This document shows positions 3,001 to 9,000 of a DNA stretch of 46,327 bases, in pieces. Location of the stretch: positions 1 through 46,327 of the IMG/VR virus record IMGVR_UViG_2802429244_000018; one strand, given 5' to 3'. A program made the position numbers. Positions within the stretch are counted from its first letter, which is position 1; each line of letters begins with the position of its first letter. This DNA comes from a virus (Duplodnaviria > Heunggongvirae > Uroviricota > Caudoviricetes).

Positions 3001-6000
3001 AACACAACCGGGTCAGATTTCATTTCAACCAATCCCATACGAACCAGCGCCTTGCCTTTCCCGGACGCAAGGAATTCACGACGACCATCACTGATAATTC
3101 GCCGATAATCTTCCAGGCTACTGCAATGCTTGTGCAGATTGCATGGGTGGCATGCCGGAACCATGTTGGATATATCGTCACGGTCCTGGTGAAGCATATT
3201 TCCAGCAAAACGAATGACCGGTTTTACATGGTCTGCATGCCACTTTTCGCCAAGTTCGCAGCCGCAATAAGCGCAGCGACCGCCGAACTTCATGCGCAGT
3301 TCTGCACGTTGTTTTTTCGTCAGTGCCATATCAGCTTTCCTTATATGGATTAATTTTATTGTGCAGTGTGTTGAATGGCGCCCATACCACGTCGTTATAC
3401 AATTCAATAACTGGCTCAATTATTTTCCCGATTGCCCAGACAAAAATTAGCGGGGATATCGGTATCATCAACACGATAAACAGAACGAGAAACAGAAATT
3501 CTGTTGTTCTACTCTTTCGCGGATATTCTTTTCTGAATAATGTAGGCATATCACTCTCCTTTAGTGCGCAAGTGGTTTTTCCAGCGGTTTTGCGCCGCGC
3601 TGCGCTTATCTCGGACTCCCTCTCTGGCAATTCCAGAAAATGAAAACAACACCACACGGCGATTGCTAACTCTCAACCACTGGCTGGGGTAGCAAAATCT
3701 GTATACACGGGAGATAAGCATCTTAGCTTTACGGTTTTTCATCTTACTGCGTACCCTTTCTCTCGTCTGTTTTGCGACACGGTGGGTTTATAATTTGCAG
3801 TGAACACGATTTCACCAGAAGGGCGGATCAGCGCCCGTTTGTGGTTACTGATTGTCAACTTCACCCACCAGTTAGAACGCGGTAAAAGAAGAAGTTTTGC
3901 CTTACGGTTTTTCATCGCTTTGCTCTCCTGCGCTTCTTTGCTGCTCGTCGTGCCGCCGCAATACCTGTATGGCGGCGCTTTGGTGCCGGGATGATGCTGT
4001 CAGCCATCAGGACATGCGGTTTTGCAATTAGCGCAGAAGCCCAAAAACGAGTCGGGTACGGTAACAAGCCGATACATGCCACACGCATTACTCATCTCCT
4101 TTGATGCGAATGCCAGCGGCGCGCTCTGCTTCACTTTGTTCCCAAAACCACTTGTGAAGCGCCATAAGCTTTTCGTCAATCGGTGCATATTTGCGATTAA
4201 AGTAGGCCTGAGCATCTTTCTCAGATTCGTCCGGTAATTCGCCAGGGCCAAACAGTGTGTTATAAATCCATGCCAGTCCGCTCTTAGCGTCGCCAGTTGC
4301 CTGCCATTCGATAATGGCAGCCTGCATTACCAGAATGTTTTTCCCGATTAATAGGTCCAGTTCTTTGTACCGGTTGCGGATGTATGCATTCTCGCTTTGT
4401 AATTTTGCGTTGCGCTTCTCTTCGGCTTCCAGTTTCTTGTAGAGAGCATCCCAACTTGTCGAGTTATCCATAACCAGCTTTGTAACCCGCTCTTCGCGTG
4501 ATTTGTAATGCTCCAGTTCATTCAGCAACGCCTGCACTACTTCTGGGTTGAAAGCTGCGATATAACGAGCGTTGTTCTCTGCGTTTTTCTGTCCGTCAAA
4601 GCCGGTCCATTTGATAACGTCTTCACATCGTTTATCACCGGGCGTATGCACCGCATACGTACCTGTACCCGGCGAAATAAATGCGACCCATTCGCCCTGT
4701 GTTGCCTGTTTTGCTATCTCACGCAGTGCCTGGTAATTAATTTCGCTCATGTCACATCACCCTGAATCCGTTGCATTTACGTAAAAAATCGCAGATATAG
4801 CTCTTCATTTTTTCGTGCCAATCTCGATCATTCCCATTGCACCAACCATCAGGTGGAGTCCAGTTTTCTATCAGAGCAGCCATTTTCTTTGCTTTTGCAG
4901 GAGTAGCTGTTGCGGTATCGCAGTAATGACGAGTGTCAACCAACGTATCCATACCATCGATATCAAGTACGCAAAACCATGTGTGATTCGGCATTTCAAC
5001 AGATGGTATTTGTTGCCCACGTCGACGTTTATCAATAAGACATACAGTCACTGGTTGCCTCCTTTGCAAAGCTGTTCCGCACAATGCAGCAGGGCGTCCG
5101 TCGCATCTTTAAGCGTCACTAGCTCGTCATCATCCAGTCCTACTCCCCTCGCGTCCATGACAAACGCCGCGCAAAGGTCGTTAAACGCCTCCGCCCGCAC
5201 TTCAGCCAAGAAAGCATCGGTGGCTGGAGTTTCGCTGTGGTGTAGGGCATCGTTGATAATCATTGCAACAACTCCGGCCTGCCCTGCATCCGTGACCGAC
5301 ACATGCTCAAGAGTTACGGCCATTGCGTGTTTCAGCCCGGCGTTCTCCGCCGCCAGCGCCGCGAATTTAGCTTCAAGTTCCGCGTAATCACTATGACGCA
5401 CCATGTCAGTACAGAATGACTCTCCTATTATTGGTGGTGATAATTGGTCACTGATAATTGTGTATATTTTCACTTCTTTCATTTATTCCCACTCCGCCAC
5501 ATCGCATTCAGATATTTGTTTTGATTCACTGATGGAAAAGAATTTCTCTTAAGCAATTCCTCTCTCGATGGCATTGGCTTTACGCGTTGGCGAATAATCA
5601 TTTCTGCCGGAATGAATGCCGGGATTGTATGCAAGTCCTCTCATGGTAAATTCCTCAGTCATTACTGATAGCGCCATAGCGTGAGCGGTAATTACGCAGG
5701 CGCGGGTCGATATATTCAGGGAATTTGTCTATTGTCGCTTTTCGCAACGGTCTCATTGCTGTTTCGTTTGTTCGGTCCTTCTCATCTTTTAATGCGAGCT
5801 GTATATCGCGTCGGTACATCCGTTCTGCTTTTGTTTCTGGTGGAAGATCGATAAACGTGTCGAAAATGTTTTTGATATTTTCCAGCACCTCCGCCTTGGA
5901 GCTACCGGAGCAATTGCGCGGGTCATCCGCACCATACAGAGGCGCTGGCATAATGGGAGCCTTATTTTCAGTAATCAGAAAGGAGGGTAATCGTTCTGGC

Positions 6001-9000
6001 TGTAACCATAATCATCTGCATGATTCTGGCTTACGTTTTTAGAGCGATTGTCTTTATCTTTGAGGCTGGCAACCATGTTGGTGATAGTTTCTGGTTGCTT
6101 GCCTTCCGACTTTTCTTTAAGGGTTTGACCTGTTTGTGCAATAAACGGGATGCGTATTTCCATCTGGTAGCTGTCTGCGCCAGTCTTTTTGTTTGTGGTT
6201 AATACTTTCTGGAGCACTAACCCGATTTTCTTTCCATGAAATTCAGGTGCAACAAATTTACTGGCGGAAACCATATGCTGCGTTAATTGTCCAATCCCGG
6301 CACACCCCATCATGGCGTGAACGACATTTGCGCCAAATTTGTTTTCCGTTCCGTCATTTTTCTGAACACAGACGCTAAGATATTGGATTTTACGTCCGTC
6401 GTCGGATTCGCCAGAAAACTCAATAAATTTGGCTCCTTTTTCTGATTGCTTTAGTTCTGCTTCAGTAATGGTAATGATATGAGCGCCAGTTTCGTTAATA
6501 AAACCACCTTGCCCTGCGGTCAGTGCTGCTTCTTCGTTATAAGTAAAAATCACGTTGCTCATGCGGCGTTTTCCTTAATTTGATGAACATTATTGATGCC
6601 GTAGTAATCACAAACAGTGGCATCGACGAAAGAGAGATCGTTATCAATCTCATTGGAATCAAACATTCCCATTGGGGATTTAACAGTGTCTGCACCGTTG
6701 TTTTTCGTGGTGAAAAAGAACTGGTCATCGCGGGTAAGAGTGCGAAGAACTATAGTAAACATGCCTTCGACAGTGATTTTCTCGTCCAGCATTTTGCCGA
6801 TAGTTTTCATTTTCACGCGCCCCATAGGGGTTTCTTCGGTGTGCGCAAGAAAATAGACTCTCAGGTCATCAGGTGCATCCTGTGCAGCCTTAATCACCTC
6901 CCATGCGTGGCGGCCTATCTCAGTAAATTTATCAAACGATTTTTCTTCTGAGCGACGCATAAACTCATTGCTCATCACATACTGGAAGTCATCAACAATA
7001 ACGATTCTTTTCCCGTATTCGTGAGCACGCTTAATTACGGCAACTATTACATCCCATTTATCAGTGGTAACTACGGTTCCTTTTTTTGCTCTGGCATCCC
7101 ATGCCAGCCAGTCTTTTGATTTAAATGGTAGCGGCTTGCCTATTGGTTTTATAAGTATTGCTTCCTCTGGATTGATATTTCTCATGCTGGTTGATTTTCC
7201 GGTGCCAGACTCACCGAGTATTAATGTCGCAGTTCCCATAATTCACCTCAGAATGGTAATTCGGATTGGGAGGAAAGAAACTCGCGCTCATTCATGCGCT
7301 CTCTTTGTGCCTGCCATAAACAAAGTTGTTTCTTTGATTTATCTCCCGCTTTACGCCAGTAACGAGCCTCAGCAATGTGATATTCTCTTTTTAATCGACT
7401 TAACTCTGGAGTTTTCGCCAGTTCTACCGGAATCATTTTGACCTCCATTTTCTGTAGGCTTCTACGGCCTCACGAAACATCTTTTCATCGCCAATAAAAG
7501 TGGCGATAGTGAATTTAGTCTGGATAGCCATAAGTGTTTTATCCATTTTTGGGGACTCCTGGCTGATTAAGTACGTCGATGAGTCGTTTCCATCCGTCAC
7601 GTAATTTACGGGTGATTCGTTCAAGTAAAGATTCATTTAGTTGGAAGGCACCCATGCGAGCGCCTCCCGCGATTGCGTAAATCATGGGTGGTTCCTTATG
7701 TTGGTTTTATTAGTAGGCTATTTTTGTTGCGAATACTTCGCCTTTTACGATGGCTGTTATGATATTTTTAGCAACATCTTCTGATGCACCAACCTTGATA
7801 AGGTCAGCAAGTATTTTGTTATTTACTTCTTTCCGGTGAGCTTTATCCTTTGCTCTACGCTCTTCTTCTTCCTTGATTCTTTTTTCTTCTGCTATTCTGG
7901 CTTGCTCTTTTGCTTCAGCCTCGCGACGGATTCGTTCAGCCTCCTCCTGTGCTTTTCTGCGTTCTGCTTCAATTGCTGCCTGCTTTTCTCTTTCAGCTCG
8001 TTCTGCTGCCTCTTTTGCTTCGCGCTGTGCTCGTTGCTCGGCTTCAATACGTTCACGCTCTGCACGTTCCGCTGCTGCCTTAGCTTCTGCTTCTCGCCTT
8101 GCTGCTGCTTCAATTTCGGCTTTTGCCTTTGCTTCGGCTTCAGCTCTGGCTTTCTCTTCAGCTTCTCTTTTTAAGCGTTCTTCATGCTCTCGCTTTTCCT
8201 GCTCCGCTTTGAGTCTTGCCTCTTCTCTTTGGCGGTCAAATTCGCGATCCATCAAAATCGCTATTTCATGGTCAGACTCAATTTGCTTTGCGAGAGCTTC
8301 AGCTGCTGCCTTAGCTTCTTCTTCGGCTTTAATCCGTGCCTGTTCCTCCTCATAATCAGTAAGAGGCTGGCGCGCCTTGGCTTTCAGTTCATCAAGGCGA
8401 TCACGCACTGTCTTGCGGTTAGCATCAATTAGCTTTGGAATTTCCTTCAGTTCAGCAACAAGGTCTTTGCCAAGACCATCGAGATATGTTTTCGTCTGCG
8501 CAACTTTATACGCCAGAGAAGCGATCTCCTTTCTGCCCTTTGCCGTTGTGATATCAGGCACAAAGGACATAACTTCACGTTCAACCTTTTGAAGTATTTC
8601 TTCAATCTGGTCGGCAGACTGAAATACAGTCATTGCATTTGCTTTTTCAATAACAACTAAATCTGTTACTTCACTCATATATCCTCCGTCAAAAAAATTG
8701 CCCTCACACTGGAGGGCAAAGAAGATTTCCAATAATCAGAACAAGTCGGCTCCTGTTTAGTTACGAGCGACATTGCTCCGTGTATTCAATCGTTGGAATG
8801 AATACACAGTGCAGTGTTTATTCTGTTGTTTATGCCAAAAATAAAGGCCGACTATGCGGCCTCGGAAGGAAGTCCAATCATCTTATTCAAATCTTCTACC
8901 CGTAAAGCAGGAAGTGCTGTACTTGCTTTATCTGCTTCTTTTGGTAGCAATTCTTTGCTTTCAGGCCAAACTTCAATGAGTCGCTTAACTGTTGTGACTG

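Follow-up and report, generated by a model that had tools for sequence, protein, structure and literature searches.

A probable HK620-type recombination module, with a Sak4-like annealase and its cognate single-stranded DNA-binding protein, in the lambda Red position of a lambdoid prophage

Organization of the recombination module

The IMG/VR virus record IMGVR_UViG_2802429244_000018, analyzed here over its full 46,327 nucleotides and referred to as the window, is a lambdoid prophage. Its left end carries an integrase gene, and it further encodes a cI-like repressor, an O-like initiator, a primase/helicase, NinB, Rus, and Q, together with late genes for an HK97-like head and a contractile tail. 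Four consecutive genes on its minus strand, hkaM, sak4, ssb, and abc2, very probably constitute a recombination (Rec) module of the type carried by phage HK620, transcribed from pL under N antitermination past cIII and kil. The equivalent slot past cIII-kil is filled in lambda by gam-bet-exo. Expression from pL and the role of the module in this prophage are suggested by gene order, and nothing in the sequence contradicts the assignment.

Window positions 5471-7634 align at the DNA level with HK620 positions 3978-6140, and the block from 5971 to 7634 is 95-100% identical. The HK620 Rec module (hkaM-hkaL/sak4-hkaK/ssb-hkaJ/abc2) contains the same four genes in the same order and with the same lengths (62, 226, 195, and 98 amino acids), and it shares with the window the ATGA overlap between sak4 and ssb, the slot past cIII-kil, and the NDYPPF tip of the single-stranded DNA (ssDNA)-binding protein, SSB. 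In other respects the two phages differ: they have about 4-5 kb in common in total, and HK620 has a P22-like podovirus virion whereas the window encodes contractile-tail late genes.

Open reading frames (ORFs) were listed across window positions 3500-10500, and the order in the direction of transcription is cIII, kil, hkaM, sak4, ssb, abc2. The hkaM homologue (7248-7436, minus strand) ends 8 nucleotides before sak4, the hkaL homologue (6559-7239, minus), which encodes a 226-residue ATPase consisting of a RecA core alone and expected to act as a single-strand annealing protein. Its cognate ssb, the hkaK homologue also termed SSB-2 (5975-6562, minus; 195 residues), adjoins it through a 4-base overlap of stop and start, ATGA (GCCGCATGAGC), with AAGGA upstream, an arrangement typical of translational coupling and read here from the sequence. 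The same sak4-ssb adjacency occurs in HK620 and in the other phages examined, namely Acinetobacter phage PhabP_R1, Roseburia phage Jekyll, and Lactobacillus phage Lc-Nu; an ssb has been reported to lie beside as many as 80% of sak4 genes (PMC5928155). The last gene, abc2 (5655-5951, minus), begins 23 nucleotides past the ssb stop and encodes a 98-residue protein of the P22 anti-RecBCD type, a putative RecC-binding modifier. A preliminary description of this DNA had recognized three ORFs past cIII and kil, and all were found, closely packed on the minus strand, the two for which it gave lengths having those lengths; the extent it assigned to the module, 5975-7448, holds for these three genes and falls short downstream, where the module continues into the overlooked abc2.

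Both neighbors upstream of hkaM belong to the pL operon and lie on the minus strand. The cIII ORF spans 7539-7685 within a tblastn match span of 7518-7685 (79% identity to lambda cIII, E 2e-24), and kil lies at 7433-7546 (Pfam Lambda_Kil, 4e-21), its product being 97% identical to HK620 Kil over 7436-7546. An N-like antiterminator (9487-9906) is encoded farther upstream of cIII in the direction of transcription, and a pL-like promoter (10050-10022) is situated upstream of N.

Homologues of lambda Exo, Bet, and Gam were sought by tblastn throughout the 46-kb window and none was found, the best match having an E value of 0.4. The proposal that lambda Red has been replaced is thereby borne out, the gam-bet-exo slot being filled by other genes. 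The window module resembles lambda Red in its slot past cIII-kil, in its place in the pL operon, and, as proposed, in its job, namely phage-encoded, RecA-independent annealing recombination combined with neutralization of RecBCD. The two are not homologous: the annealase of lambda, Bet, is Rad52-like and works independently of ATP, whereas Sak4 is RecA-like and ATP-dependent. Lambda also encodes an exonuclease and uses Gam to block RecBCD; the window module contains no nuclease, would modify RecBCD through Abc2, and brings its own SSB. The P22 Rec module (arf-erf-abc1-abc2) is likewise related through abc2 and through its arrangement of small ORF, annealase, partner, and abc2; in contrast, its annealase is the Rad52-like Erf, and its Abc1 is unrelated to the window SSB.

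The Sak4 ATPase

The 226-residue protein, whose N-terminus reads MGTATLILGESGTGKST, contains a Walker A motif, G9-ESGTGK15-ST, and a Walker B motif, IVIVDD, at residues 79-84. It matches PHROG 2872, "Sak4-like ssDNA annealing protein", with an E value of 3.9e-108, covering 1-220 of 219 profile positions, and narrowly passes the threshold of Pfam AAA_24 (30.2 bits, cut-off 27). Alignment with HK620 HkaL revealed identity at 225 of 226 residues (99.6%), the sole change being D43E. The preliminary description of a RecA-core, Sak4-like ATPase with the Walker A sequence GESGTGKST is thus upheld by the family matches and by near identity to a characterized Sak4.

Since a sequence search of the PDB returned zero matches for Sak4, its fold was compared through an AlphaFold2 model built with 38 homologues (mean predicted local distance difference test score, pLDDT, 87.5). 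After the closest match, the comparison returned RAD51D, RecA, RAD51C, KaiC, XRCC3, and RadB, a ranking that places the ATPase in the RecA/Rad51 superfamily, nearest to Sak4. The model has the RecA/Rad51 core fold with both Walker motifs and carries no additional N- or C-terminal DNA-binding domain. Membership in another P-loop family, such as a KaiC/DnaB-like helicase, a Zot-like, or an ABC-type ATPase, with the likeness to Sak4 being superficial, would have undone the earlier assignment; near identity to HK620 Sak4 and the fold comparison both refute it, and we regard it as having next to no probability.

The biochemistry of the HK620 protein has been described: Sak4 is monomeric in solution, binds ssDNA in a reaction requiring ATP (Hutinet et al. 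2018, Front Microbiol 9:743, PMC5928155), and anneals complementary strands in an ATP-dependent manner, while neither performing nor stimulating strand exchange (PMC5928155). Carried over from a protein that differs at one residue, ATP-dependent ssDNA binding and annealing without strand exchange would be the expected activities of the window Sak4. A more distant relative is Sak4 of a staphylococcal phage (ORF016; PDB 8rc5, in complex with SaPI2 Stl; Nat Commun 2025, PMC11846896), which is 14% identical to the window protein. It differs in coming from a phage of a Gram-positive host and in being the target of Stl, which a satellite encodes. The E. coli protein is not known to enter into any such interaction.

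The single-stranded DNA-binding protein

The identity of the 195-residue partner, which the preliminary description had inferred from position, is now established as that of a predicted SSB on the basis of homology. The protein matches PHROG 743, "single strand DNA binding protein" (5.5e-66), and is identical to HK620 HkaK (SSB-HK620) at 192 of 195 residues (98.5%), the last 15 residues, NDYPPF included, being the same. HkaK has been shown to bind ssDNA, which vindicates the earlier designation of the partner as the Sak4-associated ssDNA-binding protein. No match was obtained in Pfam, even at E<=10, or in NCBIfam, and comparison with PDB sequences gave chance matches only.

A structural model built with 34 homologues (pLDDT 80.7; predicted template modeling score 0.75) consists of a beta-barrel with an inserted helix and has the OB fold, while residues 174-193, in the tail, have pLDDT values below 50 and are predicted to be disordered. 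Searching viral models (BFVD) with this model by Foldseek retrieved several DUF669 proteins (E 3e-10 to 1e-3) as well as the SSB of a Roseobacter phage and that of a Vibrio phage. A disordered acidic tail with a ...D-x-x-P-F tip, as in bacterial-type SSBs, is present: nearly all relatives of the protein end in ...PF, and among 117 diverse representatives of the SSB-2 family the consensus tip is DDDIPF, which is the tip of E. coli SSB. The NDYPPF end found in the window and in HK620 is a diverged form of this SSB-like tip.

The location of the gene invites a different reading. The 195-residue protein sits in the P22 abc1 position, beside abc2, and the original annotation of its HK620 counterpart, likewise made from position, would make it an Abc1-like anti-RecBCD accessory and not an SSB. 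Such a function is scarcely credible, given that HkaK has no similarity to P22 Abc1 and that ssDNA binding was demonstrated in a published electrophoretic mobility shift assay with the 98.5% identical protein (PMC5928155). The OB fold, the acidic ...PF tail as in SSBs, the remote homology to DUF669 proteins described below, and the fold matches to the Roseobacter and Vibrio phage SSBs all argue against it as well.

Relationship to DUF669

HkaK has been said to correspond to DUF669 (Hutinet et al. 2018, PMC5928155), NCBI labels homologues of the 195-residue protein "DUF669 domain-containing protein", and the preliminary description had called the partner DUF669-like. The Pfam DUF669 model (PF05037; gathering score 21 bits) does recognize the Sak4-adjacent SSB of Lactobacillus phage Lc-Nu (ORF30) with 44 bits. 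It gives no match to the window protein even at E<=10, and among the 117 diverse relatives it yields weak matches in 3, the best with an E value of 0.001.

Relationships below this threshold were addressed by comparing profiles. An exhaustive hidden Markov model search with the 195-residue protein found 662 representative clusters, of which 116 were aligned together with the window protein (alignment A3, 117 sequences); a second alignment, A4, comprised 31 sequences, Lc-Nu ORF30 and relatives with a precomputed PF05037 annotation. Comparison of A3 with A4 by hhalign gave a probability of 96% (E 4e-9), with 111 aligned columns that span residues 3-123, the OB core. A shallow alignment (A1) found nothing when compared by hhalign with the single partner sequences of Roseburia Jekyll and Lc-Nu, and the single Lc-Nu sequence reached 12% probability against the family profile; the partner of the Acinetobacter phage Sak4 is clearly homologous to the 195-residue protein (98.9%). 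The term DUF669-like therefore stands in the sense of remote homology, attested by the 96% profile-profile probability and the fold matches, and fails in the sense of strict Pfam membership, there being no direct match.

The DUF669 SSBs of Firmicutes phages, exemplified by Lc-Nu ORF30, resemble the window SSB in lying beside sak4, in their length of about 170-200 residues, in their remotely homologous OB core, and in an acidic C-terminus that ends D-D-D-(I/L)-P-F, akin to that of the window SSB family. Unlike them, the window protein and most of its 116 diverse relatives are not recognized by the Pfam model. Within the alignments, the Firmicutes group (A4) has the consensus end DDDLPF, also similar to that of E. 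coli SSB, and the SSB-2 family (A3) has DDDIPF.

Abc2 and HkaM

Abc2 matches Pfam Anti-RecBCD_p2 (PF11043) with an E value of 3.3e-35 and 120.6 bits against a cut-off of 25, its residues 1-98 aligning with profile positions 1-97 of 97, and it matches PHROG 656 (6e-44). Identity to HK620 Abc2 is found at 60 of 98 residues (61%). DNA identity to HK620 drops to 56-83% across 5671-5970 within a surrounding block of 95-100% identity per 100 bases; judged from these values, abc2 forms a mosaic patch and represents an allele that has diverged from the HK620/P22 type. Abc2 binds RecC and blocks Chi activation (literature cited in PMC12315714), and it has been described as making RecBCD a 5'-3' exonuclease that serves the phage pathway (PMC5928155). 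As Abc2 blocks Chi activation, Chi octamers (GCTGGTGG) were counted: the 46 kb contain zero on either strand, which is not significant given the approximately 1.4 expected by chance.

The small ORF preceding sak4 matches PHROG 1723 (1.3e-32), has no match in Pfam or NCBIfam, and encodes a protein identical to HK620 HkaM at 60 of 62 residues (97%). Its longest form extends to 7448 and has 66 residues. The start is most likely the second ATG, at 7436, giving 62 residues, because HK620 hkaM is annotated from the equivalent position, because this ATG and the kil stop share the sequence ATGA, and because GGAGG lies 5-6 nucleotides upstream. The small ORF of the preliminary description is thus present, with a start that is probably 7436 and not 7448.

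HkaM and Abc2 were dispensable for oligonucleotide recombineering (PMC5928155). HkaM, which is conserved and translationally coupled to kil, could add a third functional part to the Sak4 system when natural double-stranded DNA is the substrate, perhaps by regulating it or by linking it to modified RecBCD, and co-adaptation might lie behind the divergence of the abc2 allele. The proposal for HkaM is improbable: in distant phages the small ORFs that precede sak4 have no similarity to HkaM, and no positive evidence was found that either HkaM or the diverged abc2 allele is unusual.

Proposed mechanism and role

In published experiments HkaK behaved as a true SSB, apparently tetrameric, that strongly stimulates annealing by Sak4 in vitro and oligonucleotide recombineering in vivo (PMC5928155). 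Removal of its last six residues, NDYPPF, reduced recombineering 10-fold and left Sak4 no longer able to bind SSB-coated ssDNA (PMC5928155). Since the window proteins are 98.5-99.6% identical to those tested (PMC5928155), the SSB and Sak4 steps can be carried over to the window, and a pathway may be proposed as follows. Transcription from pL would express the module as an operon. Abc2 would bind RecC and re-program host RecBCD, as in the P22 Abc2 literature, such that DNA ends, instead of being destroyed, undergo processing that serves the phage pathway. The phage SSB, as a tetrameric OB-fold protein, would coat the exposed ssDNA, and its C-terminal NDYPPF tip would bring ATP-bound Sak4 onto the SSB-coated strand, where Sak4 would anneal complementary strands without strand invasion. 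The predicted result is RecA-independent recombination tolerant of sequence divergence, a functional replacement for lambda Gam, Bet, and Exo, and the module probably supports late replication and concatemer formation.

Several considerations weigh against the assignment to an HK620-type Rec module. The 195-residue protein has no direct match that reaches the Pfam DUF669 or bacterial SSB thresholds, and HkaM has no known role. The RecBCD-modifying activity of Abc2 is the weakest step, since the allele is just 61% identical to that of HK620.

The module might serve chiefly in replication, that is, in the switch to rolling-circle replication, in concatemer formation, or in fork restart, with annealing as the means and genetic exchange as a lesser role. 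In Staphylococcus aureus phages, mutants in sak4 and ssb hardly form genome multimers (Neamah 2017, cited in PMC5928155), and Rec modules have been implicated in the theta-to-sigma switch (PMC12315714). We consider it possible, although rather unlikely, that replication is the main role; this reading is compatible with the Rec module as proposed here, as annealing of SSB-coated ssDNA serves both purposes. That the four genes are inactive relics of a decaying prophage is, by comparison, very improbable. Many E. coli prophages are defective, and the neighboring DUF2737-like ORF may be frameshifted, but none of the four module ORFs is truncated, each has the length of its HK620 counterpart, and the gene set of the window appears complete, with integrase, repressor, N, Q, replication, head, and contractile-tail functions.

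Prevalence and prior knowledge

The module is widespread. The 2.1-kb region at 5600-7700 has DNA matches in 329 phage records, among which Stx-converting phages are numerous. A tblastn search with Sak4 found 64 records that are >=99% identical, and a cluster of 1036 member sequences has the exact Sak4 sequence as its head. Of 5426 complete E. coli genomes, 195 carry the sak4-ssb pair, in up to four places per genome. A 2025 survey of 325 lambdoid phages in Genome Research lists SSB-2, a Rad51/RecA-type annealase, and Abc2 as standard Rec module components (PMC12315714) and includes HK620 as one of its four reference Rec modules (PMC12315714).

Published work already covers the module and its biochemistry, as well as its standing as an alternative to lambda Red, and the window holds a common copy. 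Lopes 2010 is reportedly among the publications that treat the module as such an alternative. The value of the present assignment lies in annotation: both genes can be named with confidence as Sak4 and its cognate SSB, closing a gap in annotation and not in biology. In E. coli carriers, PGAP/RefSeq names sak4 "ATP-binding protein" and ssb "hypothetical protein" or "DUF669 domain-containing protein". The window also illustrates mosaicism, with an HK620-type Rec block bearing a different abc2 allele inside a contractile-tailed lambdoid prophage.

Other features of the prophage

Among complete E. coli genomes, no match spanned >=80% of window positions 1-24000. Considered in its entirety, the prophage is a new mosaic, which has no bearing on the module.

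Immediately downstream of abc2, an hkaI (DUF2737) homologue occupies 5479-5644 on the minus strand. By tblastn its match to HK620 falls in two overlapping frames, 5644-5615 and 5622-5482, and the ORF listed there starts with TTG, a pattern that suggests a frameshift or an alternative start.

Two more recombination genes are found on the plus strand, away from the Rec module: a NinB/Orf mediator (15895-16335; phrog_72, 1.5e-58; 39% identical to HK620 NinB) and the RusA resolvase Rus (19539-19901; 99% identical to HK620 Rus). The nin region also encodes, on the plus strand, a PAPS-reductase-like protein (16766-17701; phrog_33262, 1.5e-112) and, after it, a DNA methyltransferase (17835-18821; phrog_363). 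On the minus strand, in the interval from N to cIII that in lambda contains ea10 and ral, are genes for an Nmad5-domain protein (8852-9535; Pfam PF18757, 5.5e-71) and for a 340-residue Glu/Lys/Ala-rich, coiled-coil-like protein (7710-8732; phrog_1376; no Pfam or NCBIfam match). Together, the PAPS-reductase-like, methyltransferase, and Nmad5 proteins hint at DNA-modification functions.

The left end of the window carries, all on the minus strand, a tyrosine integrase gene that runs off the window edge (1-1074), an Ant-like anti-repressor gene (1356-2009), and, in the ea region, an HNH endonuclease gene (2964-3419). Terminator-like hairpins are found at 8863-8844 and 8719-8698.

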